Below, piece after piece: positions 988 through 16,853 of a DNA stretch of 18,064 nt (the first letter of the stretch is position 1; each line of letters begins with the position of its first letter). The DNA is taken from assembly GCA_016212295.1 (NCBI GenBank), contig JACRGO010000034.1, positions 1-18,064 on the forward strand. Reading direction: 5' to 3'. The notes below the pieces were generated by a model that was not told the DNA's origin, ran no database searches, and worked only from the letters and a program-made list of their open reading frames with translations. Both the position numbers and the translations under genes were made by a program. Origin of the DNA: Nitrospinota bacterium. GTDB lineage: Bacteria > Nitrospinota > Nitrospinia > JACRGO01.

Positions 988-2079
988 TTGAAGATCGCGG
1001 TTGACGCAATGGGAGGGGACAATGCGCCGGAGGTCGTGGTGGATGGGGTCATTCAATACCTCCAGGAAAACCAGGGCCAAATCATTCTATTCGGGCAGCA
1101 AGACCTCCTTTTCCCCTTGCTCGAAAAAAAAGGGGCCAAGGACCTTCCGATAGAGGTGCGCCATTCCTCCGAGTCAGTTGACATGAACGAGGCGCCGTCC
1201 ACTGCCCTGCGCCGTAAAAAGGACTCCTCCATCAGGAAGGCCATAGAGTCGGTCGCCTCCGGAGAAGCAGGCGCGGTGGTGAGCGCCGGGAACACAGGGG
1301 CGGTCCTCGCCATTTCCACGGTCATCCTGAAGCCCATGCAGTGCGTGGACAGGCCTGCCATCTCCATTCTCCTTCCAACCGCAAAGGGACACTCCATACT
1401 CCTTGATGCGGGCGCGAACGTGGACTGCAAATCGAGCCAGCTCTTTCAGTTCGCCATCATGGGCCACGTGTACGCGAAGTACGTCCTGAAAAAGGAGAAT
1501 CCGAAAGTCGGCCTCTTGAGCATCGGGGAGGAAGACTCCAAGGGAAATGAGATCAGCAAGGAGGCATTTAAAATGCTTAAAAAAACTGATATCAATTTCA
1601 TTGGCAACGTGGAGGGGAAAGAGGTGTACCGGGGCAACGCGGACGTGATTGTCTGCGACGGCTTTACCGGGAACATAGCCTTGAAGATAAGCGAAAGCCT
1701 GGCGGAAATGATCGGGAATTCCATAAAGGACCTCTTTATGACAAACTGGCGGACCAAGCTGGCCTTCAAGCTGGTGGAACCTTATTTCCGGGCCTTTAAG
1801 AAGTCGGTGGATTATAACGAGGTGGGAGGCGCGCCGCTCCTGGGCATCAACGGGACGTGCATCATCTGCCACGGGAGTTCCAAGGCAAAGGCGATAAAAA
1901 ACGCGATTCAGCTCGCGGAGGAATTCATAAAAAACGAGGTGAACGCCCATATCCGCGAAGGCATTGAAAAAAATCTGGCCCATGCATACGCGGGCGCCAG
2001 AAAAGGGCGCTTCTGGCAGCAGCTCAAGGAAACCATTCATTTCGGGTCAGGCGCGGAAAAGACGGAGCCGGAAAGTTGA
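988..2079 (+). CDS. plsX: Phosphate acyltransferase PlsX
   Basis: TTG start preceded by AGGAGGG. N-terminus MKIAVDAMGGDNAP is the PlsX signature. 363 aa. Confidence 0.93.
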   Translation: MKIAVDAMGGDNAPEVVVDGVIQYLQENQGQIILFGQQDLLFPLLEKKGAKDLPIEVRHSSESVDMNEAPSTALRRKKDSSIRKAIESVASGEAGAVVSAGNTGAVLAISTVILKPMQCVDRPAISILLPTAKGHSILLDAGANVDCKSSQLFQFAIMGHVYAKYVLKKENPKVGLLSIGEEDSKGNEISKEAFKMLKKTDINFIGNVEGKEVYRGNADVIVCDGFTGNIALKISESLAEMIGNSIKDLFMTNWRTKLAFKLVEPYFRAFKKSVDYNEVGGAPLLGINGTCIICHGSSKAKAIKNAIQLAEEFIKNEVNAHIREGIEKNLAHAYAGARKGRFWQQLKETIHFGSGAEKTEPES

Positions 2080-2088
2080 TAAAAATTA

Positions 2089-2129
2089 AAAGTGACTAAA
2101 GTTTGAAGTGAACTAAAGTGACTAAAGTT
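2089..2129. repeat. 15-bp direct repeat AAAGTGACTAAAGTT x2 (2089-2103, 2115-2129), related to the GTGACNA heptamer family
   Basis: Exact duplicate 15-mers with 26-bp period immediately after the plsX stop. The GTGACT-AAA motif also borders heptamer arrays at 9861, 13436 and 16492. Confidence 0.6.
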
Positions 2130-2131
2130 AT

Positions 2132-2279
2132 AGCGCAACATGTCCGCAACCAAAATAAATTTCTATGTATTCAAACGTTCGATGATATTATTACATCCAG
2201 AATTTTACGTTTTCCACGTTAATTAAATCAGCGTTGAATGCTTCAAGAGAAATTTGTTTTGGTTGCGGACATGCGCGCT
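2132..2279. repeat. Inverted-repeat element: about 32-bp arms (2132-2164 and 2248-2279, about 29/32 complementary) separated by 83 bp. The left arm plus core (2132-2185) is repeated at 6286-6340
   Basis: Left arm AGCGCAACATGTCCGCAACCAAAATAAATTTCT versus the reverse complement of AGAAATTTGTTTTGGTTGCGGACATGCGCGCT. The ORF-track extension of fabH (MNASREICFGCGHARS...) is a translation of the right arm. Confidence 0.75.
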
Positions 2280-2335
2280 CCAAGAAGCGCTTTAAAAACT
2301 TGCGCGGAAAACGCAAATTTCTGGACGTAATATAT

Positions 2336-3316
2336 ATGCTCCGGGCAAAAATCATTGGAACAGGTTCATACCTTCCGAAAAAGGTAATGACCAACCACGA
2401 CCTGGAAAAGTTGGTGGACACCTCCGATGAATGGATCATGACCCGGACCGGCATCCGGGAGCGGAGGATAGCGGACAAAAAGGAGGCAAGCTCTGATTTG
2501 GGGATCAAGGCGGCCAGGGAGGCTTTGGCCAATGCCGGCCTGAAGGCAAGCGACCTGGAATTGATACTCGTCGCCACCGCCACCCCGGACATGATCTTTC
2601 CTTCAACAGCGGCCTACGTCCAGCATGGACTTGGCGCCGGGAACGCCGCGGCCATGGATATTTCCGCGGTTTGCACCGGATTCATCTTCGGCCTTTCCAT
2701 AGCGGAACAATATATCAAAACAGGACGCTACAAGACTATTCTGGTTGTGGGCACGGAAATCATGTCCAGGATACTGGACTGGACTGACAGAAAAACCTGC
2801 GTCCTTTTCGGGGACGGCGCCGGCGCGGCCATCATCCAGGGTTCGGAAGACGAAAGCGGGATACTTTCCACGCATATTTACACGGACGGGTCATACGCGG
2901 ATTTTTTGCTGGCCCCTGGTTCCGGGACAAGGCATGGATATGGAAGCGCCGCGCAGGGGGACAAGTCAAATTGCATTCACATGAAGGGGAACGAAACCTT
3001 TAAGGTGGCGGTTAATTTCATGAGCAAGGTCGCGAGGGAGGCGCTTGAAAGCAACGGCTTGGCCTCGGAGGACATCGACCTCTTCATCCCCCACCAGGCA
3101 AACCAGAGGATCATTGAAGCCATTGCCAAAAAACTTGGCGTTCCCTCAGAAAAGGTTTTCATGAATTTGCATAAATACGGAAACACCTCAGCCGCTTCCG
3201 TTCCCATAGCCCTTGATGAGGCCCTTCGTGAAAACCGCATCAAGCGGGGCGACCTGGTGTTGATCGTGGCCTTTGGCGGCGGACTTACCTGGGGGGCTTC
3301 CCTGATAAGGTGGTGA
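2336..3316 (+). CDS. fabH: 3-oxoacyl-ACP synthase III (FabH)
   Basis: MLRAKIIGTGSYLPKKVMTNHDLEKLVDTSDEWIMTRTGIRERRIA is the canonical FabH N-terminus, with active-site Cys region AVCTGF. True ATG at 2336, not 2234. Confidence 0.92.
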   Translation: MLRAKIIGTGSYLPKKVMTNHDLEKLVDTSDEWIMTRTGIRERRIADKKEASSDLGIKAAREALANAGLKASDLELILVATATPDMIFPSTAAYVQHGLGAGNAAAMDISAVCTGFIFGLSIAEQYIKTGRYKTILVVGTEIMSRILDWTDRKTCVLFGDGAGAAIIQGSEDESGILSTHIYTDGSYADFLLAPGSGTRHGYGSAAQGDKSNCIHMKGNETFKVAVNFMSKVAREALESNGLASEDIDLFIPHQANQRIIEAIAKKLGVPSEKVFMNLHKYGNTSAASVPIALDEALRENRIKRGDLVLIVAFGGGLTWGASLIRW

Positions 3317-3431
3317 ATTTTTTTCAGCTTTCAGTATTCAGCAAAGGCATGGCAAAACTAAAAAAACAAATCCCTGGCCGCTGATTGCTGTGCGCTGAAA
3401 GCTTTTTGTGGTTTTTCGCGTCAAATTCCAC

Positions 3432-3437
3432 TATAAT
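3432..3437 (+). promoter_or_regulatory. Perfect TATAAT -10 hexamer upstream of the secreted-protein gene; no convincing -35
   Basis: TATAAT 35 bp upstream of the ATG at 3472. Implies the inserted gene may have its own promoter. Confidence 0.25.
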
Positions 3438-3471
3438 TTTTTTGATTTATAAACGGAGAGAAGGAAGAAAG

Positions 3472-4560
3472 ATGAATGCCTTTAATGCATGTACAAAAAA
3501 TATCGGCATTGCCCTTCTTCTTTTCCTGCTGAACCTGGTTTCTTTTATTCCGGCTTGGGCGGAAAATTTCCCGGAGCCAAATCCTCCTCTGGAAGGCCCA
3601 CGGCATCTTGAGAAAAAGAAACCTTTGCTGGAAAGGAGGGCCTTGGGGGCCCCCACAACTGAGTGGACCTACCATAAAAACCAAAAGGGAACGCATCCAA
3701 GCAATCACGAACAGGCCCTTGTATGGCTTATGAACAACGCCAGGAAGGACCCGAAAGCGGAGGGAATTTTTTTAGCCGCCACCACGGATACCGACGTGGC
3801 AAATGCGCGCCAGTATTTTAATGTCAACGCCACGATGCTCAAAAGCGAATTCGCTAAACTTCAGAAAAGGCCGCCAGCGGCCTTTGACATACGCCTTTAC
3901 AATGCCGCGTACGAACATAACAAAATTATCATTAAAAAGGACCAACAAAATCATCATGACCCCACTTGGTCACTTTATGATAAAGCAGGATTTGCCAGAA
4001 GGACCGCTGGACAGAATGTATACGCTTATGGAAAAAGCGCCATTTACCTCCATGCGGGTTGGAACATCGACTGGGGGCCAGACGCCTATGGAAAAACCAA
4101 GGGTGGAATGCAGGGGAGCGACAGCTCCGGGCGGGGCCACCGCTCCAACCTGATGGACCAAACCAAATATTCGGCCAGCTATCCCTTCGCCAACGTTGGA
4201 ATTTCAGTGGAATCCGAAAGCAACTCCGCAACCCAGGTAGGCCCCTTGGTGTCCACGGCCGATTTCGCCAATGCCGATACAAGCAAAGCCAATCACTACA
4301 ATGCCTTTATCGTGGGCACGGTTTGGCGGGACACTAATAAAAACGGCGTTTACGATTCCGGCGAAGGCTTGGGGGACGTCAAGGTTATGCCAAACCAGGG
4401 GACCTTTTGGGCAAAGACCGCGAAAAGCGGCGGATACGCCATTCCCGTGACTTCACCAGGCGATTACAACATCACATTTTCCGGCGGACAGCTCACGGCA
4501 AAAAAAACAAAAAAAACAACCGTGGTTAGTGAAAGCGTGTTGCTCGACTTAACATTGTGA
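3472..4560 (+). CDS. Secreted CAP/SCP (YkwD-like) domain protein with an unrecognised C-terminal Gly/Thr-rich domain
   Basis: N-terminal signal peptide MNAFNACTKNIGIALLLFLLNLVSFIPAWA. HEQALVWLMNNARKDP and GRGHRSNLMD...NVGISV match the CAP/YkwD H-x-x-N-x-x-R and GHRxNIL...GVG motifs. GGAG RBS precedes the start. The ORF-track start at 3385 is an upstream extension. Confidence 0.65.
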   Translation: MNAFNACTKNIGIALLLFLLNLVSFIPAWAENFPEPNPPLEGPRHLEKKKPLLERRALGAPTTEWTYHKNQKGTHPSNHEQALVWLMNNARKDPKAEGIFLAATTDTDVANARQYFNVNATMLKSEFAKLQKRPPAAFDIRLYNAAYEHNKIIIKKDQQNHHDPTWSLYDKAGFARRTAGQNVYAYGKSAIYLHAGWNIDWGPDAYGKTKGGMQGSDSSGRGHRSNLMDQTKYSASYPFANVGISVESESNSATQVGPLVSTADFANADTSKANHYNAFIVGTVWRDTNKNGVYDSGEGLGDVKVMPNQGTFWAKTAKSGGYAIPVTSPGDYNITFSGGQLTAKKTKKTTVVSESVLLDLTL

Positions 4561-4577
4561 TTTTAAAAAGAAAATAA

Positions 4578-5516
4578 ATGGCAACAAATTACGCCTTTCT
4601 CTTTCCCGGACAAGGGTCTCAGTATCCCGGCATGGGAAAGGAGCTGTGTGATAATTTTTCCGAGGCAAGGGAAGTCTTTGAGCAGGCCAACGAGGCCCTG
4701 GGATACGATCTCGCGTCCCTTTGCTTCCAAGGCCCGGAAGAGGAACTCAAGCAAACGGAAAAGACCCAGCCGGCCATCCTTACGGCCAGTATAGCGGCGG
4801 CGCGGGTATTGGAAAAGGAGGGCCTGAAACCGGCCATTACCGCCGGCCACAGTCTTGGGGAATATTCGGCGTTGGCCGCCGCTGGGTCCATCTCCTTCAT
4901 GGACGCGGCCAGGGTAACGGCCAAACGTGGGAGGTTCATGCAGGACGCCGTCCCGGACGGCGTTGGGGCAATGGCCGCCATCCTTGGACTGGAAAGCCGG
5001 AAAGTGGAAGAAATATGTTCGAGGGTTTCCAGGACCGGCAAGGTAAGCGCGGCCAATTATAACAGCCCTATCCAGGTGGTCATTGCCGGTGAAAAAAGCG
5101 CGGTGGAAGAGGCCATGGAGGAAGCCGGGAAGGAAGGGGCAAAGAAGATGGTCCTTCTGCCAATGAGCGTTCCTTCCCATTGCGATTTAATGGTCCCGGC
5201 GCGGGAAAGGTTGTCCCTGGAACTGGATAAAATATCCTTCGCGGACCCAAGTTTCCCGCTCATAGCCAATGTAAACGCCCTCGAAACCAGGAGCGGATTG
5301 GACGCAAGGAAAAACCTGAAAGGGCAGTTGACCAGCCCGGTCCGCTGGGTTGAGTCCATGGAAAGGATCGCTGGAGCAGTGAAAACCGTGATTGAGGTCG
5401 GACCCGGCAAGGTGCTCATCGGCCTCATGAAAAGGATCAATAAGGACATTCAATGCCTGAACGTTGAAGACATGCAAAGCCTTGAAAAGACCATGAATGC
5501 CATGAAAGAACATTGA
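4578..5516 (+). CDS. fabD: Malonyl-CoA:ACP transacylase (FabD)
   Basis: FLFPGQGSQYPGMGKEL and GHSLGEYSAL active-site motifs. 312 aa. Confidence 0.93.
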   Translation: MATNYAFLFPGQGSQYPGMGKELCDNFSEAREVFEQANEALGYDLASLCFQGPEEELKQTEKTQPAILTASIAAARVLEKEGLKPAITAGHSLGEYSALAAAGSISFMDAARVTAKRGRFMQDAVPDGVGAMAAILGLESRKVEEICSRVSRTGKVSAANYNSPIQVVIAGEKSAVEEAMEEAGKEGAKKMVLLPMSVPSHCDLMVPARERLSLELDKISFADPSFPLIANVNALETRSGLDARKNLKGQLTSPVRWVESMERIAGAVKTVIEVGPGKVLIGLMKRINKDIQCLNVEDMQSLEKTMNAMKEH

Positions 5517-5525
5517 CGGTTTATG

Positions 5526-5546
5526 ATTGACAATTGACGATTGAAC
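5526..5546. repeat. Heptamer tandem array ATTGACA-ATTGACG-ATTGAAC (contains two phased TTGAC -35-like hexamers)
   Basis: Three consecutive 7-mers read directly from the sequence. Confidence 0.7.
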
Positions 5547-5554
5547 CTTAAACA

Positions 5555-5589
5555 TTAAATCTTAAATCTTAAATCTTAAATTTTAAATC
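5555..5589. repeat. Heptamer tandem array (TTAAATC)x5 immediately upstream of the 5594 ORF
   Basis: TTAAATC TTAAATC TTAAATC TTAAATT TTAAATC. Confidence 0.85.
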
Positions 5590-5593
5590 CCTT

Positions 5594-6274
5594 ATGCTGG
5601 CAAACAGAGAAATAAAAACGAGACTGGAAAAGGCTTTCCCTATAAAACAGGCGGTGGCGCTGGCCGATGTTTTTATAGAATTCAAGGGAGACCTTGTCAA
5701 GTCTGGAGATTTCAACGAGCTTAAAAATGTAGTAAAAGAACTTGCCGAGGCTCAGAAGCGGACAGAAGTAAAAATGGGAGAACTTGCCGGCGCTCAGAAG
5801 AGGACAGAAGTAAAAATGGAAGAACTTGCCGAGGCGCAGAAACGGACGGATTATGAACTTGTCCTCTTTCGCCGCACTTTTACCTCTCAGATTGGAGGGC
5901 TTGGGGCGCGATGGGGTATGATGACGGAATCGTCGTTTCGCAACGCCATGGAGGGAATACTGTCAGAAGTTGGGTTCAAGGCCGAGAGGTTCATAGCTAA
6001 AGACAAAAAGGGGACAGTTTTCGGGTATCCGGCGGAAGTGGAGCTTGATGTTGTCGTTAAAAACGGCAAGACCCTGGTCATTGAGATTAAATCCTCGGTT
6101 AGCCGGGCGGACGCGGCCTCCTTTGACAAGAAGGTAAGCTTTTACGAGAAGGAGACACGGCGGAAGGCTAGCAGGAAGATAATTATATCTCCTTATACCG
6201 AGCCCGCGGCCCATGACGCCGCCAAAAGACTGGGGATCGAGGTTTTTACTGATATAAATGACCCGGCTTTGTAA
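5594..6274 (+). CDS. Coiled-coil-repeat plus PD-(D/E)XK-like nuclease-fold protein (DUF3782-like), inserted between fabD and fabG
   Basis: N-terminal 14-aa tandem repeats [14 protein letters not shown] x about 2.6. C-terminal [24 protein letters not shown] fits the D...(D/E)xK restriction-endonuclease-like core. No fab-pathway role. Confidence 0.55.
5738..5850 (+). repeat. In-frame 42-bp tandem repeat (about 2.6 copies) inside the 5594-6274 CDS
   Basis: Units 5738-5779 and 5780-5821 are near identical. The third unit diverges after about 27 nt. Confidence 0.85.
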
Positions 6275-6285
6275 CACAAACCCAC

Positions 6286-6340
6286 AGCGCGACGTGGCCG
6301 CAACCAAAATAAATTTTCGATGCATTCAAACGTTTCATGA
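6286..6340. repeat. Second copy (about 85% identical, one indel) of the 55-bp element seen at 2132-2185. A degraded right-arm remnant may lie at about 6406-6431
   Basis: AGCGCGACGTGGCCGCAACCAAAATAAATTTTCGATGCATTCAAACGTTTCATGA versus copy 1. Both copies lie just after a stop codon and upstream of a fab gene. Confidence 0.75.
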
Positions 6341-6418
6341 AGCCCCAAATTTCAATTGTCAGATAACAAATAAATCTCAATAACCAAAATTACAAAGAAA
6401 CAAAGAAATGAAATTGTT

Positions 6419-6447
6419 TTGGACATTCGGTAATTGTAATTTATAAT
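6419..6447 (+). promoter_or_regulatory. Candidate promoter TTGGAC-17-TATAAT upstream of fabG
   Basis: Perfect -10 TATAAT at 6442-6447 and a weak -35 at 6419-6424, in an AT-rich region about 130 bp upstream of fabG. Confidence 0.3.
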
Positions 6448-6574
6448 TTATTTGTCATTTGGGATTTCGTTTTCATTTTGGTTGAAGCGAAACCGCGCCA
6501 GGAAGCTTTGTGTCCTGGTGGCTTCGTGGCATATTTTTAATTAGAATCTTAACTGAAAGAAAGGTTTACCGAAA

Positions 6575-7318
6575 ATGAGTCTCGAAGGAAAAACCGCGTT
6601 AGTCACAGGGGCAGGCAGGGGAATCGGCAAGGCGATAGCCCTTGCCTTGGCCAAGGACGGGGCGAACGTGGCCGTGTCCGATATAGACCAGGGTTCCGCC
6701 AACCAAACCGCTGAAGAAATCAAATCCCTTGGAAGAGGCTCCATTGGATTGAAAGCGGACGTGTCCAGGTCCGAAGAGGTGGAGGGGATGTTTCAGGCAA
6801 TTGTGGACAAATTCGGCGGGGTTGATATACTGGTGAATAACGCCGGGATCACCAGGGACGGGTTACTGGTAAGAATGAAGGACGAGGATTGGAGCCTGGT
6901 CATGAAGATCAATCTGGACGGGGCCTTCTATTGCTCCAGGGCGGCCGGCAAGATCATGATGAAGCAAAGAAGAGGGGCCATAATCAACATCGCCTCAATC
7001 GTGGGGGTCATGGGAAACGCGGGCCAGGTGAATTATTCCGCGTCCAAGGCGGGCCTGATCGGCCTGACGAAATCCAGCGCACGGGAGCTTGCCTCAAGAG
7101 GGGTCACGGTAAACGCCATCGCCCCGGGTTTCATCGATACGGCAATGACACAGGCCCTGAACGATAAGGTAAAGGAAAAACTGATGGAGCAGATCCCGCT
7201 GGGCCGCTTGGGCTCCTCGGAGGACATCGCGAACGCGGTCCTCTTCCTTGCGTCTCCGGAAGCGGCCTATATAACCGGCCAGGTGCTCCATGTGAACGGG
7301 GGCATGCTGATGGCGTAG
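6575..7318 (+). CDS. fabG: 3-oxoacyl-ACP reductase (FabG)
   Basis: LEGKTALVTGAGRGIGKAIA Rossmann motif and SDR catalytic S...YSASKAG. 247 aa. Confidence 0.93.
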   Translation: MSLEGKTALVTGAGRGIGKAIALALAKDGANVAVSDIDQGSANQTAEEIKSLGRGSIGLKADVSRSEEVEGMFQAIVDKFGGVDILVNNAGITRDGLLVRMKDEDWSLVMKINLDGAFYCSRAAGKIMMKQRRGAIINIASIVGVMGNAGQVNYSASKAGLIGLTKSSARELASRGVTVNAIAPGFIDTAMTQALNDKVKEKLMEQIPLGRLGSSEDIANAVLFLASPEAAYITGQVLHVNGGMLMA

Positions 7319-7331
7319 GATGAGTTGTGAT

Positions 7332-7373
7332 GGTTCAGGGTTCAGGGTTCAGGGTTGAAGGTTGAAGGTTGAA
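7332..7373. repeat. Heptamer array (GGTTCAG)x3-(GGTTGAA)x3
   Basis: Read directly from the sequence. Imperfect inverted partner (AACCCAG)x3 at 7473-7492. Confidence 0.85.
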
Positions 7374-7787: not shown

Positions 7788-9044
7788 GTGAAAGACCAAG
7801 TAAATCAAAGAAGAGTAGTGGTGACCGGGCTCGGCCTGGTGACCCCCCTGGGAATAGGGGTGAAGGAAACGTGGGAAGGAATTTGCGCTGGACGGTCCGG
7901 CATCGGACGCATCACCAAATTCGACCCGACGGATTACTCCTGCCAAATCGCCGGGGAGGTTAAGGGATTCGACCCGACCAATTACATGGACGCCAAGGAG
8001 GCCAGGAAGATGGACCCCTTCATCCATTACGCCATGGTCGCGGGCTCCTTTGCCGTGGAGGATTCCGGCCTCAAAATAACTCCTGAGAACGACACCAGGG
8101 TAGGCGTAAGCATCGGCGTGGGCATGGGCGGCCTTCCGGTTATTGAAAAATACCACGAGGTCGTCCTGGAACGTGGCCCCAGAAAAATCACGCCATTCTT
8201 CATCCCAATGCTTATCGCAAACATGGCGGCCGGCCATCTGTCGATGAAGTTCGGCGCCAAGGGGCCGAACTGTTGCAGCGCCACAGCCTGCGCCACCGGC
8301 ACCCACGCCATGGGCGATTCCTTTGAAATCATCCGCCGCGGCGACGCGGACGTCATGATCGCGGGCGGCGCTGAATCCGTTATCACGAAACTGGGGATCG
8401 GCGGGTTTTGCGCCATGAAGGCCCTGGCCGCGAAATACAACGGCCAGCCGGAAAAGGGAAGCCGCCCCTTTGACAGGGACCGCGACGGGTTTGTTATGGG
8501 TGAAGGCTCAGGCGTGATGGTGCTTGAGGAGTTGGAATCGGCCAAACGCAGAGGGGCCAGGATTTACGCGGAAATTGTGGGATACGGAATGAACGCCGAC
8601 GCCTATCACATGACCTTGCCCCCGCCGGAGGGAGAAGGCGCCGCCCGGTGCATGAACCTGGCCCTGAAAAAAGGAAATATCAGGCCGGAAGAGATTGATT
8701 ACATAAACGCCCATGGCACTGGAACAGCCGCGGACGTCCTGGAAACAAAGGCCATAAAGTCCGTCTTCGGCGGCCACGCATACAAGCTGGCGGTCAGCTC
8801 CACCAAGTCAATGACCGGACATCTCCTCGGGGCAGCCGGTGGAATAGAGGGCGTTTTTTCCGTTCTTGCCATTGAAAGGGGAGTCCTTCCCCCGACCATT
8901 AATTTAGAGAACCCCGACCAGGAATGTGACCTGGATTATGTCCCTAACCAATCCAGAAAAAAAGAAATAAATTTCGCACTTTCCAATTCCTTTGGATTCG
9001 GCGGGACCAACGCCTGCGTTATTTTCAAGAAATTTAATTCCTGA
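7788..9044 (+). CDS. fabF: 3-oxoacyl-ACP synthase II (FabF)
   Basis: GTG start abutting the acpP stop. RRVVVTGLGLVTPLG N-terminus. Cys-His-His triad context (ATACATG, HGTGT, GHLLGAAG). Confidence 0.92.
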   Translation: MKDQVNQRRVVVTGLGLVTPLGIGVKETWEGICAGRSGIGRITKFDPTDYSCQIAGEVKGFDPTNYMDAKEARKMDPFIHYAMVAGSFAVEDSGLKITPENDTRVGVSIGVGMGGLPVIEKYHEVVLERGPRKITPFFIPMLIANMAAGHLSMKFGAKGPNCCSATACATGTHAMGDSFEIIRRGDADVMIAGGAESVITKLGIGGFCAMKALAAKYNGQPEKGSRPFDRDRDGFVMGEGSGVMVLEELESAKRRGARIYAEIVGYGMNADAYHMTLPPPEGEGAARCMNLALKKGNIRPEEIDYINAHGTGTAADVLETKAIKSVFGGHAYKLAVSSTKSMTGHLLGAAGGIEGVFSVLAIERGVLPPTINLENPDQECDLDYVPNQSRKKEINFALSNSFGFGGTNACVIFKKFNS

Positions 9045-9861: not shown

Positions 9862-9872
9862 GACTGAAATCA

Positions 9873-9928
9873 GTGACAAGTGACGAGTAACAAGTGACAA
9901 GTGACAAGTGGCGAGTAACGAGTAAAAA
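9873..9928. repeat. Heptamer array A: GTGACAA GTGACGA GTAACAA GTGACAA GTGACAA GTGGCGA GTAACGA GTAAAAA
   Basis: Eight consecutive 7-mers. Preceded by TGACTGAAA. Confidence 0.9.
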
Positions 9929-9964
9929 ACGGAAAATGCCCCACTTGATCCATGCCTCTTGACA

Positions 9965-10237
9965 CTATCCCGAACAATTTATCTGATCCACTATAGCTGT
10001 AATGACCGAATGGACCGGCGCGGAGTCGTCTCCAAAAAGCTGCCTGGCCGCGTTCCCTTCCGGGGCAACCAGCACCGTGTCCCCTTCCCCTGCCTGCACA
10101 AAATCAACAGCCAGGAAGGAGCTTCCCGTTGGTTTCTGCTCCTGGTCCAGGGGCTGGACCACAAGGACCTTGTGCCCCTCGTAAGCCGGGTGCTTCAAGG
10201 TCGCGACGACATTTCCCAATACCTTGCAGATCAACAT
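9965..10237 (-). CDS. BMC vertex protein (EutN/PduN/CcmL family, BMC-P) copy 1
   Basis: MLICKVLGNVVATLKHPAYEGHKVLVVQP matches the PF03319 N-terminus. The ORF-track start at 10327 is an extension through the repeat array. Confidence 0.85.
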   Translation of the reverse strand: MLICKVLGNVVATLKHPAYEGHKVLVVQPLDQEQKPTGSSFLAVDFVQAGEGDTVLVAPEGNAARQLFGDDSAPVHSVITAIVDQINCSG

Positions 10238-10247
10238 TTTTTTCTTA

Positions 10248-10296
10248 GTGACCAGTGACGAGTAACGAGTGATCAGTGGCGAGTAACGAGTGACGA
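10248..10296. repeat. Heptamer array B1 (GTGACCA GTGACGA GTAACGA GTGATCA GTGGCGA GTAACGA GTGACGA)
   Basis: Seven 7-mers. Inverted partner B2 lies 24 bp away. Confidence 0.9.
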
Positions 10297-10320
10297 GTCT
10301 TAGAAGCATAGGTTTTTTAC

Positions 10321-10369
10321 TTGTCACTCGTCACTTGTCACTCGTCACTATTTATTTGTCACTCGTCAC
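10321..10369. repeat. Heptamer array B2 (TTGTCAC TCGTCAC TTGTCAC TCGTCAC TATTTAT TTGTCAC TCGTCAC), inverse of B1. The two form a palindrome of about 120 bp
   Basis: Reverse-complement orientation of B1. It contains the stop codon and last codons (..SSDE*) of the BMC-P gene at 10359-10637. Confidence 0.9.
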
Positions 10370-10637
10370 TGCTCCTTGCGTCTATATTGTCAACAATCCC
10401 GACGATACCGGCGTCTATGGGACTGAAGGTGTCCGGCAGAGTCAGGGCCGCCTCGCGTCCGACCACATAAGAGACGGTCTCGCCGATTCCGGCCTGTTGG
10501 GCGTCCACCATCACAAGAGGCTCTCCCTTGGGTTTTCGCTCGTGGTCCACCGGCTGCACCAGCAGGAGCTTGATTCCCTCCAGGCTTGGATGCTTCACCG
10601 TGGCCACCACCCGTCCTATTACTTTTCCTATGTGCAT
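10359..10637 (-). CDS. BMC vertex protein (EutN/PduN family, BMC-P) copy 2
   Basis: MHIGKVIGRVVATVKHPSLEGIKLLLVQPV. GGAG RBS. C-terminal tail encoded by repeat array B2. Confidence 0.85.
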   Translation of the reverse strand: MHIGKVIGRVVATVKHPSLEGIKLLLVQPVDHERKPKGEPLVMVDAQQAGIGETVSYVVGREAALTLPDTFSPIDAGIVGIVDNIDARSSDE

Positions 10638-11638: not shown

Positions 11639-11672
11639 CACGTTATCAGTTCACGGTTTACGGTTCACGGTT
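11639..11672. repeat. Heptamer array CACGTTA TCAGTT CACGGTT TACGGTT CACGGTT; left boundary of the four-helix-bundle cassette
   Basis: Inverse partner AACCGTG array at 12042-12069. Contains the stop codon of the 11665-12015 gene. Confidence 0.85.
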
Positions 11673-12015
11673 TTTTCAATGAATCATGCAAGGCTTGCAA
11701 CATTTTTGATATGGATTTCAACTCATTAATCAAACCTTTTGCGTCACTGTCGGAAAATACGTTAATTTCCCTTGAAATATAAACTTGTGTCCGCAGTTCC
11801 GCCGCCGAGCCTTTTGCAATGTTTATAAACCTTTGAAAATCTGGAACACTGTTTCTTTCGCACCCTTCCGCGATATTCGATGGAATAGATACGGATGAGC
11901 GCAACATTTGATCTTTCAGCCCATAATCACGGCAATCTTTTAATAATTTATAGAGGGTTACTGTCAGTCTGCAAGATTTTTTCCAAACTTCTAAATTCTC
12001 AAAGGAAGCGCTCAT
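11665..12015 (-). CDS. Four-helix-bundle protein (23S rRNA intervening-sequence protein / Avd-like family, TIGR02436-type), intact copy
   Basis: LEVWKKS...LKDQMLRSSVSIPSNIAEG..R.S..DFQRFINIAKGSAAELRTQVYIS matches the family consensus. Flanked by inverted CACGGTT/AACCGTG heptamer arrays. Confidence 0.85.
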   Translation of the reverse strand: MSASFENLEVWKKSCRLTVTLYKLLKDCRDYGLKDQMLRSSVSIPSNIAEGCERNSVPDFQRFINIAKGSAAELRTQVYISREINVFSDSDAKGLINELKSISKMLQALHDSLKKP

Positions 12016-12041: not shown

Positions 12042-12069
12042 AACCGTGAACTGTGAACCGTGAACCGTA
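12042..12069. repeat. Heptamer array AACCGTG AACTGTG AACCGTG AACCGTA; right boundary of the four-helix-bundle cassette
   Basis: Reverse complement of the 11639-11672 array. Confidence 0.85.
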
Positions 12070-12090
12070 AACAATTTTCTTATTTTATGT

Positions 12091-13435: not shown

Positions 13436-13498
13436 GTGACTGAAAGATAGTGACAAGTGACAAGTGACAAGTGACGAGTGACAAGTAAAAAGTAAAAA
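13436..13498. repeat. Heptamer array C (GTGACTG..GTGACAA x3 GTGACGA GTGACAA GTAAAAA GTAAAAA)
   Basis: Inverted partner D at 13571-13619, 72 bp away. Confidence 0.9.
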
Positions 13499-13570
13499 CT
13501 TATAGCTCTTTGGGCGGACAAAAAAAATCAATGGCCAGGGATCAGTACCGGCTCCTGGATTCTTTTCTAC

Positions 13571-13619
13571 TCGTCACTCGTCACTTGTCACTCGTTACTG
13601 CTTCTCGGTAACTCGTCAC
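13571..13619. repeat. Heptamer array D (TCGTCAC TCGTCAC TTGTCAC TCGTTAC ... TCGTCAC), inverse of C
   Basis: Ends 4 bp from the aldehyde dehydrogenase stop codon. Confidence 0.9.
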
Positions 13620-15768: not shown

Positions 15769-15839
15769 GGTTCAGGGTTCAGGGTTCAGGGTTCAGAGTT
15801 CCCGGTTGAAAGCTTTGTGGCCTTTGTGCCTTTGTGGTG
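15769..15839. repeat. Heptamer array (GGTTCAG)x4-like followed by the octamer-like repeat CTTTGTGG CCTTTGTG CCTTTGTG in the BMC-T/BMC-H intergenic gap
   Basis: Same GGTTCAG unit as at 7332. Confidence 0.8.
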
Positions 15840-16491: not shown

Positions 16492-16528
16492 AGTGACTAT
16501 AAAACCAGTGACCAGTGACGAGTAATTA
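16492..16528. repeat. Heptamer array E (GTGACTA...GTGACCA GTGACGA GTAATTA)
   Basis: Overlaps the stop codon of the 16526-16807 gene. Inverse partner F at 16827-16847. Confidence 0.8.
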
Positions 16529-16807: not shown

Positions 16808-16826
16808 GAAATCCCTCCCTTTTAAC

Positions 16827-16847
16827 TCGTCACTTGTCACTCGTCAC
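16827..16847. repeat. Heptamer array F (TCGTCAC TTGTCAC TCGTCAC), inverse of E
   Basis: Read directly from the sequence. Confidence 0.85.
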
Positions 16848-16853
16848 TATCTT

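Follow-up and report, generated by a model that had tools for sequence, protein, structure and literature searches.

Two palindromic elements in the fab operon of a Nitrospinota contig probably belong to a dispersed repeat family

Introduction

Why should one and the same palindromic sequence stand before two genes of a single fatty-acid-synthesis (fab) cluster? The question is raised by contig JACRGO010000034.1 of a Nitrospinae metagenome-assembled genome (MAG), which was analysed over its whole length of 18,064 bp (hereafter the window) and in which related sequences occupy the plsX-fabH spacer and the spacer upstream of fabG. An earlier note on this DNA had offered three candidate explanations, namely a shared operator for a regulator of fatty-acid synthesis, an RNA attenuator, and a MITE (miniature inverted-repeat transposable element) that had landed twice in the cluster. 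The analysis presented here favours the last of these. Both copies are probably members of a dispersed, non-coding palindromic repeat family, resembling MITEs or the doublets of repetitive extragenic palindromic (REP) sequences known as REPINs, inserted into two fab spacers. The family is new and unnamed, and of a known kind.

Results

Two elements with terminal inverted repeats

The two copies are direct repeats of each other, 2132-2162 being 90% identical to 6286-6316, and 2152-2185 being 79% identical to 6307-6340 with an offset of one base. Gapped alignment of 2132-2185 with 6286-6340 gave, by our count, 46/55 identical positions (84%), close to the value of about 85% reported earlier, and three occurrences of the 19-mer CCGCAACCAAAAYAAATTT were counted in the window versus 0.03 expected. 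The first copy had been described as a 148-bp hairpin-capable repeat at the plsX-fabH junction with a 32-bp inverted partner 83 bp downstream, and the present data agree with this description: positions 2139-2164 and 2248-2273 form inverted arms that are 96% complementary over 26 nt with 83 nt between them, the arms lengthen to about 32 nt (2132-2164 versus 2248-2279) when one indel is admitted in the alignment, and the segment 2128-2283, folded as single-stranded DNA, reached −40.7 kcal/mol versus −14.7 ± 3.1 kcal/mol for shuffled sequences (z = −8.5). The second copy likewise has an inverted partner, the 27 nt at 6472-6498 being 74% complementary to 6287-6313, and we are therefore dealing with two elements bounded by terminal inverted repeats, element 1 (2132-2279) and element 2 (6286-6498). 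Their parts, and the repeats that adjoin them, are as follows.

2081..2129, plus strand: AAAGTGACT-type repeat module flanking element 1
2132..2279, no strand: element 1, 148 bp, a nearly palindromic repeat between plsX and fabH, defined by inverted repeat, DNA fold and arm alignment
2132..2164, plus strand: left terminal repeat of element 1, bearing the family motif of about 35 nt (AGCGCAACATGTCCGCAACCAAAATAAATTT); nhmmer E = 1.3e-6
2165..2185, plus strand: inner left arm of element 1, common to element 2 and including the AACGTT-centred half-palindrome at 2171-2182
2185..2218, plus strand: centre (loop) of element 1 and arm B of a second, interleaved inverted repeat; 30 nt, 87% complementary
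2248..2279, minus strand: right terminal repeat of element 1, carrying the family motif on the minus strand with its outer end toward fabH, 57 nt from the ATG at 2336; nhmmer E = 8.7e-7
2302..2336, plus strand: arm B', which repeats the centre of element 1 in inverted orientation and abuts the fabH start codon
6286..6498, no strand: element 2, 213 bp, belonging to the same family and lying in the spacer upstream of fabG, with an interior differing from that of element 1
6286..6340, plus strand: left arm of element 2, 84% identical to 2132-2185; nhmmer E = 8.4e-9
6347..6467, no strand: internal AT-rich imperfect inverted repeat of element 2, with 50-nt arms at 70%; not in element 1
6420..6447, plus strand: match to the sigma-70-like promoter consensus within element 2, TGGACA-16-TATAAT, 11/12, directed toward fabG; a consensus match only
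6472..6498, minus strand: degenerate right terminal repeat of element 2, outer end toward fabG, 76 nt from the ATG at 6575; nhmmer E = 4.7e-5

Both elements are inverted doublets, both are non-coding, with no credible open reading frame (ORF) inside the 148 or the 213 bp, and all four of their arms fit one family profile (nhmmer E from 8.4e-9 to 4.7e-5). They have in common only 55 nt on the left and, in the right arm, the outer ~27 nt, and the fold of element 2 is only marginally above that of shuffled sequences (z = −1.9). Both copies had been said to lie immediately after the stop of the preceding gene; element 2 starts 11 nt past the stop codon at 6274, whereas element 1 starts 52 nt past the plsX stop codon (2079), the AAAGTGACT array lying in between.

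The imperfect palindrome centred on AACGTT, to which the earlier note had drawn attention, was found at the positions given there, as TCAAACGTTCGA at 2171-2182 and as TCAAACGTTTCA at 6326-6337. It is not, however, the conserved core. In element 1 this half-palindrome pairs with a degenerate partner at about 2229-2243 in the right arm and is therefore part of the long arm rather than a separate site; the conserved core is instead the terminal motif of about 35 nt, (C)TAGCGCGGC-NNN-GCCGCAACCAAAAYAAATTT.

The second inverted repeat of the plsX-fabH spacer (2185-2218 versus 2302-2336, 30/35 identical when inverted, score 43 versus 14 ± 2 for shuffled sequences, fold z = −3.7) ends at the fabH ATG and interleaves with element 1. 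A simple nested insertion does not explain this arrangement, and our best guess is that it may be the relic of a second, inverted family copy.

The terminal motif beside unrelated genes in other genomes

Scanning 185,579 species-representative genomes for the exact 19-mer yielded 62 matches, ten of which share the extended motif while most of the others are due to chance; the nhmmer profile separated extended matches (E <= 1e-7) from chance matches (E >= 3e-5). The consensus of the ten, (C)TAGCGCGGC-NNN-GCCGCAACCAAAACAAATTT, consists of a GC stem (GCGGC/GCCGC), a variable 3-nt loop and then an invariant A-rich tail. Compared with the GCGGC-N3-GCCGC of these Brocadiaceae-type copies, the small hairpin is degraded in the arms of the window, its stem comprising only 3 bp. 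Four MAGs of the anammox bacteria Candidatus Brocadiaceae account for eight of the extended matches, and the remaining two come from one other Planctomycetota MAG and one MAG labelled Acidobacteria. Judged by the exact 19-mer alone, the motif is present two to three times per Brocadiaceae MAG. At least four metagenome contigs carry it as well (L070, L116 and L161, of the locus type seen in the Acidobacteria-labelled MAG, and L164). The repeat family is previously undescribed, and its terminal motif is near-identical across Nitrospinota, anammox Planctomycetota and other MAGs. Our literature search found no paper with the motif sequence or describing MITEs in anammox bacteria or Nitrospina.

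The neighbours of the motif outside the window are an ABC-transporter permease, AroB, TsaD, an FGE-sulfatase, NTP_transf_5, TilS, HisD, AnmK, BatD and an ABC/HlyD pair. All that could be identified are unrelated housekeeping genes with no lipid genes among them, which speaks against the enrichment upstream of lipid genes that a role in fatty-acid synthesis would have predicted. On its inner side the motif adjoins lineage-specific heptamer-rich hairpins, for example AACCACAAAG...CTTTGTGGTT, and the same loop together with the same inner sequence stands beside different genes in different MAGs (e.g. L008 and L010). Over 39 nt, the part of the AAAGTGACT-type module at 2081-2119 shares 92% identity with a module that lies close to the motif in the Brocadiaceae contig L033; this sharing indicates that the spacers are mosaics of common, mobile modules. 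A profile search of the Brocadiaceae loci and of the relatives' loci described below revealed no additional degenerate motif copies, the 19-mer had no match in viral contigs, and the spacer had no blastn match among plasmids.

Two further sequences came to light in these searches. In L035 and L036, both from Brocadiaceae MAGs, a module GAAGCCC(A/C)ATCCGAAGGAGGAGGTATGAAG is common to the inner side of the motif, directly after AACCA(C/T)AAAG, and presents a strong Shine-Dalgarno sequence and an ATG followed by an ORF of just 2 or 8 codons. An unrelated conserved leader, ...CGCGTTTTACGGCAACCAAAACAAATTTTCATTAGGGAGAGCTCGATGCGAAGC..., was seen in many metagenome contigs directly upstream of an ORF starting MRSKLML (L065, L110, L128, L141, L146, L152, L157, L174, L176 and L183, with variants in L074, L093, L100, L113, L148 and L150), and was picked up by the scan only because it shares a 17-mer.

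The same junctions in relatives

Contigs were retrieved for FabH homologues of 69-98% identity. The eight loci so obtained represent five distinct plsX-fabH junctions and one contig with only the fabH upstream flank. The spacer between plsX and fabH, 256 bp in the window (to the ATG at 2336), has the following lengths in these relatives.

L186: 0 bp
L190/L191: 6 bp
L187: 43 bp
L189: 226 bp, unrelated sequence
L185: 309 bp, inverted arrays of the heptamer GGAGTAN

None of these junctions contains the element, no orthologous copy of element 1 was found in the fabH leaders retrieved, and the profile search showed the family motif to be absent from all eight loci. In L187 and L188, furthermore, fabD adjoins fabG directly. 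The closest relative with flanking DNA, L184, has 94% nucleotide identity in fabH; its homology to the window begins at position 2333, 3 nt before the ATG, and the 157 nt upstream consist of unrelated repeats. As the elements are missing from the junctions of the relatives, they are best regarded as lineage-specific insertions into an ancestrally compact operon, and comparison of these sequences indicates that the fab intercistronic spacers turn over very quickly. In L186, where the plsX stop codon abuts the fabH ATG, the 3' end of plsX (2940-3030) has a 15-nt tandem repeat (GATTCGGAAAAGCCT and variants).

Discussion

A dispersed repeat as the probable origin of both elements

Terminal inverted repeats, the lack of coding capacity, a presence/absence difference at orthologous junctions (relatives without the element, and a replaced flank in L184) and the occurrence of the motif beside unrelated genes together point to a non-autonomous mobile or recombinogenic repeat, so that of the explanations offered earlier the one of a MITE landed twice is preferred; with 148 and 213 bp, both elements lie within the size range of MITEs (about 50-500 bp). 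According to the mechanism that we propose, a family whose copies are flanked by inverted terminal motifs of about 35 nt, and whose mosaic interiors differ from copy to copy, would have entered two of the intercistronic spacers in an operon (rpmF-plsX-fabH-fabD-fabG-acpP-fabF) that is compact elsewhere. A trans-acting recombinase or transposase would recognise the terminal motif as the end of the element, and the location near fab genes would be incidental. Element 1 is probably transcribed, since plsX-fabH is intercistronic in the relatives; its near-perfect stem of 26-32 bp would then offer a substrate of the RNase III type, by which the plsX and fabH segments of the mRNA could be uncoupled. 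Element 2 may supply fabG-acpP-fabF with an outward sigma-70-like promoter, as its consensus match suggests.

Among known repeats, the Correia elements of Neisseria (CREE/NEMIS) are close parallels. They are likewise non-coding, of about 100-155 bp, with terminal inverted repeats of about 26 bp and an AT-rich centre, they occupy intergenic or intercistronic spacers near gene starts, and the parent transposase is unknown for both. Correia elements duplicate a TA target, their transcribed copies form long hairpins that are cut by RNase III, and some have outward promoters. Element 1, with its 148 bp and its 26-32-bp arms, and the promoter-like site of element 2 fit this pattern. The differences are that no sequence similarity exists, that no such duplication is visible here, that the host phyla are others, and that the present motif also occurs singly and beside heptamer arrays.

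REP sequences, which are imperfect palindromes of 20-40 nt, and REPINs are mobilised by IS200/IS605-like Y1 transposases (RAYTs). They resemble the present family in having a short, GC-rich stem-loop whose stem is conserved and whose loop varies (the GCGGC-N3-GCCGC of the Brocadiaceae-type copies), in occurring both singly and as inverted doublets folding into a single long hairpin (as do the copies of the window), in being extragenic and in showing no target-site duplication. Unlike them, the best-conserved part of our motif is a 20-nt non-palindromic A-rich tail, and long spacers (83 and 158 nt) separate the halves of the doublets. The two REP superfamilies are defined by a GTAG or CGTC tag (PMC3733652), and our motif, which starts (C)TAG, has neither.

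Several observations weigh against a mobile repeat. No target-site duplication is visible at the flanks GTTAT|...|CCAAG and CCCAC|...|CAGGA; a TA precedes GCGC in most Brocadiaceae-type copies, yet CCTAGG itself is conserved there. There is no transposase among the genes of the window, and no autonomous insertion sequence or transposase with these ends was found in the window or in 11 family loci. Copies in the source genome could be counted within the 18-kb contig only (n = 2). Outside the window the motif is single and never forms an inverted pair, and a metagenome scan with the window-type arm (GCAACCAAAAYAAATTTYY) returned mostly chance matches, with no further copy among the matches listed. 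Finally, in five of the ten scorable loci outside the window, a sample that is small and was seeded on the exact 19-mer, the motif has its outer end 4-20 nt upstream of a start codon that Pfam supports. In these five loci the outer end reads ...GCCGCGCTAGG on the strand of the gene, always in one orientation, and gives a Shine-Dalgarno-like sequence AGG(A/G). By a rough estimate of our own, which assumes a few per cent per random insertion, the chance of five in ten is of the order of 1e-5. Such a bias represents more order than random selfish insertion predicts.

A possible leader module used by the host

The start-codon bias is the main argument for the rival that survives best, according to which the motif is a cis-acting module used by the host and, together with the heptamer arrays, forms a functional 5'-leader or post-transcriptional signal. 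It could be the binding site of an RNA- or DNA-binding protein of the host, or a portable Shine-Dalgarno/5'-stem-loop cassette spread horizontally, and the fab copies would then affect the expression of fabH and fabG. Consistent with this, GCGGC-N3-GCCGC combines a constant stem with a variable loop, both right arms of the window are oriented toward fabH and fabG as the motif is toward its genes in the five loci, and heptamer arrays adjoin the motif in nearly all loci. In the last respect the loci recall the TAACTGA repeats of Beggiatoaceae, which stand close to start codons and have been proposed as a regulatory network (PMC4679880). Repeats of that type, including the short tandemly repeated repetitive (STRR) sequences of cyanobacteria, similarly form abundant arrays of heptamers between genes, in many cases a short way upstream of a start codon, and are common to distant phyla with no known mechanism of transfer (PMC4679880); the present element differs from them in combining a unique 35-nt motif with a long palindrome, and its heptamers are others (AGTGACA, GGTTCAG, CACAAAG).

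Other observations speak against a leader module. In the window, 57 and 76 nt separate the arms from the start codons, the small hairpin is degraded, and the left arms point toward gene 3' ends; nor did the flanks of the motif, on inspection, show a consistent promoter geometry. The motif is, moreover, missing at the same genes in close relatives and is hence dispensable. We therefore hold it rather unlikely that (C)TAGCGCGGC-NNN-GCCGCAACCAAAACAAATTT is a horizontally shared cis-acting leader module acting with heptamer arrays. Equally doubtful is its assignment, on that reading, as a translation-initiation or RNA-stability cassette or as the site of an unknown post-transcriptional regulator, with the fab copies as inverted doublets; and that such a module should be shared among anammox Planctomycetota, Nitrospinota and others is tentative to the same degree. 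The cross-phylum motif with its start-codon bias is nevertheless the one aspect that deserves genome-wide study. Should the bias prove to extend over whole genomes, motif and heptamer arrays together would offer a tractable way into a post-transcriptional signal in organisms for which genetic tools are lacking.

Proposed regulation of fabH by an RNA leader

A dedicated RNA attenuator or riboswitch-like leader for fabH would account for the strong fold of the RNA of the whole plsX-fabH spacer (−85.2 kcal/mol, z = −7.7), and the second inverted repeat (2185-2218/2302-2336), which reaches the fabH start, could occlude the ribosome-binding region. The two helices are not mutually exclusive, however, so that no obvious switch results. 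No U-tract follows the hairpin and no terminator-like site was predicted there; over both elements the terminator prediction gave nothing but a weak minus-strand site at 6303-6282. Rfam contained no family above the gathering threshold for the window and nothing relevant in permissive searches of 2000-6700 or of 11 family loci, the sub-threshold hits being to plant miRNA-precursor models, i.e. to generic long hairpins. Positional conservation is lacking too, the whole spacer being replaced in L184 despite the 94% nucleotide identity of fabH. An attenuator is thus very unlikely.

Four other assignments of the motif were considered and rejected. On the reverse strand, TGGTTGCGGC-NNN-GCC has the GG-N10-GC spacing of a sigma-54 promoter, but its −12 TTGC falls in the variable loop and is not conserved, and the genes downstream are housekeeping genes. 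A sigma-70 promoter at the junction of heptamer hairpin and motif (TGGTTAAAT) would have an inconsistent −35 spacing (9 versus 18 nt). As an intrinsic terminator the motif would have its T-rich tract before the small hairpin, with the A-rich tail following on the other strand. Integron attC sites have RYYYAAC/GTTRRRY cores unlike the CCGCAAC/GTTGCGG seen here, and no cassette array was apparent on inspection.

The proposed operator for a fatty-acid-synthesis regulator

If the AACGTT half-palindrome were the centre of a shared operator, bound by a transcription factor for fatty-acid synthesis, it would have its counterpart in the operators of FapR, FabT, FabR, FadR and DesT, which also contain palindromes and stand upstream of fab genes. 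In its favour, the window has two exact copies of TTCAAACGTT, both in fab spacers, where about one would be expected per 18 kb with one mismatch. These are the only exact copies in the window and both lie inside the arms of the two elements, so that they are not independent. The sequence is missing upstream of plsX, acpP and fabF in the window and, with one mismatch allowed, from the eight related fab loci, whose junctions measure 0-43 bp or are filled by unrelated repeats. Thus, in contrast to the known operators, it is not kept at the fab genes of relatives, it lies within a repeat element whose family adjoins non-lipid genes elsewhere, and no lipid regulator gene is present in the window. 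The operator explanation is largely refuted by these data and is, in our estimate, extremely improbable; a tempting false lead is removed by the recognition that the repeat is no new lipid-regulator operator.

Reliability of the assembled sequence

Assembly errors can give rise to long palindromes, and element 1 is known from a single assembly, exact-protein look-ups of PlsX, FabG and FabH (P0001) having shown no other assembly of the same junctions on record; a palindromic chimera made by the assembler is nonetheless scarcely credible, given that the arms are imperfect and asymmetric, that the flanks are not inverted, that the left end of element 2 recurs in an independent Logan assembly and that the same terminal motif is found in many unrelated assemblies. 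The Logan contig concerned, L001 (SRR12113407), stems from the same population, equals window 3070-6315 at 99.97% identity and thus includes the start of element 2. It stops exactly at 6315, with which base the constant portion of the terminal motif ends, and this is suggestive of a multi-copy, repeat-induced branch in the assembly graph. The motif is likely to cause contig breaks in such hard-to-assemble genomes, and it could serve as a marker of horizontal exchange.

The surrounding contig

The genes that surround the two elements in the first half of the contig are as follows.

218-778: yceD-like gene
988-2079: plsX, with its stop codon at 2079
2336-3316: fabH, annotated as a 326-aa protein from the ATG at 2336
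3385-4560: gene for a 391-aa protein weakly matching SdrD_B
4578-5516: fabD
5594-6274: gene for a 226-aa DUF3782/PDDEXK_10 protein of a nuclease superfamily
6575-7318: fabG, from the ATG at 6575
7788-9044: fabF

Two additional genes (3385-4560 and 5594-6274) break up the fab operon. The first, for the SdrD_B-like protein, has no counterpart between fabH and fabD in L184 and L187, and the second is present between fabD and fabG in L184 too. Within the latter gene, positions 5736-5847 form a 42-nt tandem repeat (2.7 copies, 85% matches) coding for a 14-residue repeat. The rest of the contig (9034-17738, minus strand) is a bacterial-microcompartment (BMC) locus with genes for a class II aldolase, BMC shell proteins, EutN, an aldehyde dehydrogenase, an RnfC/Nuo51-like protein and an RpiR regulator, into which a gene of the 23S-rRNA-IVS family (11665-12015) is inserted.

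Tandem heptamer arrays were seen in nearly every intergenic spacer of the window, built from AGTGACA/AGTGACG and its complement, GGTTCAG, CTTAAAT, ATTGACA, AACCGTG and CTTTGTGGC. They are located as follows.

2089-2128: heptamer array
5526-5589: heptamer array
7328-7373: heptamer array
9872-9923: heptamer array
10247-10370: heptamer array
11649-11672: heptamer array
12042-12072: heptamer array
13449-13599: heptamer array
15769-15837: heptamer array
16504-16523: heptamer array
16825-16848: heptamer array

The arrays often form inverted pairs around a gene, such as 9871-9930 and 10312-10371, which bracket the ORF 9959-10258. Heptamer arrays of like style and other sequence are found in the relatives and in the Brocadiaceae loci.

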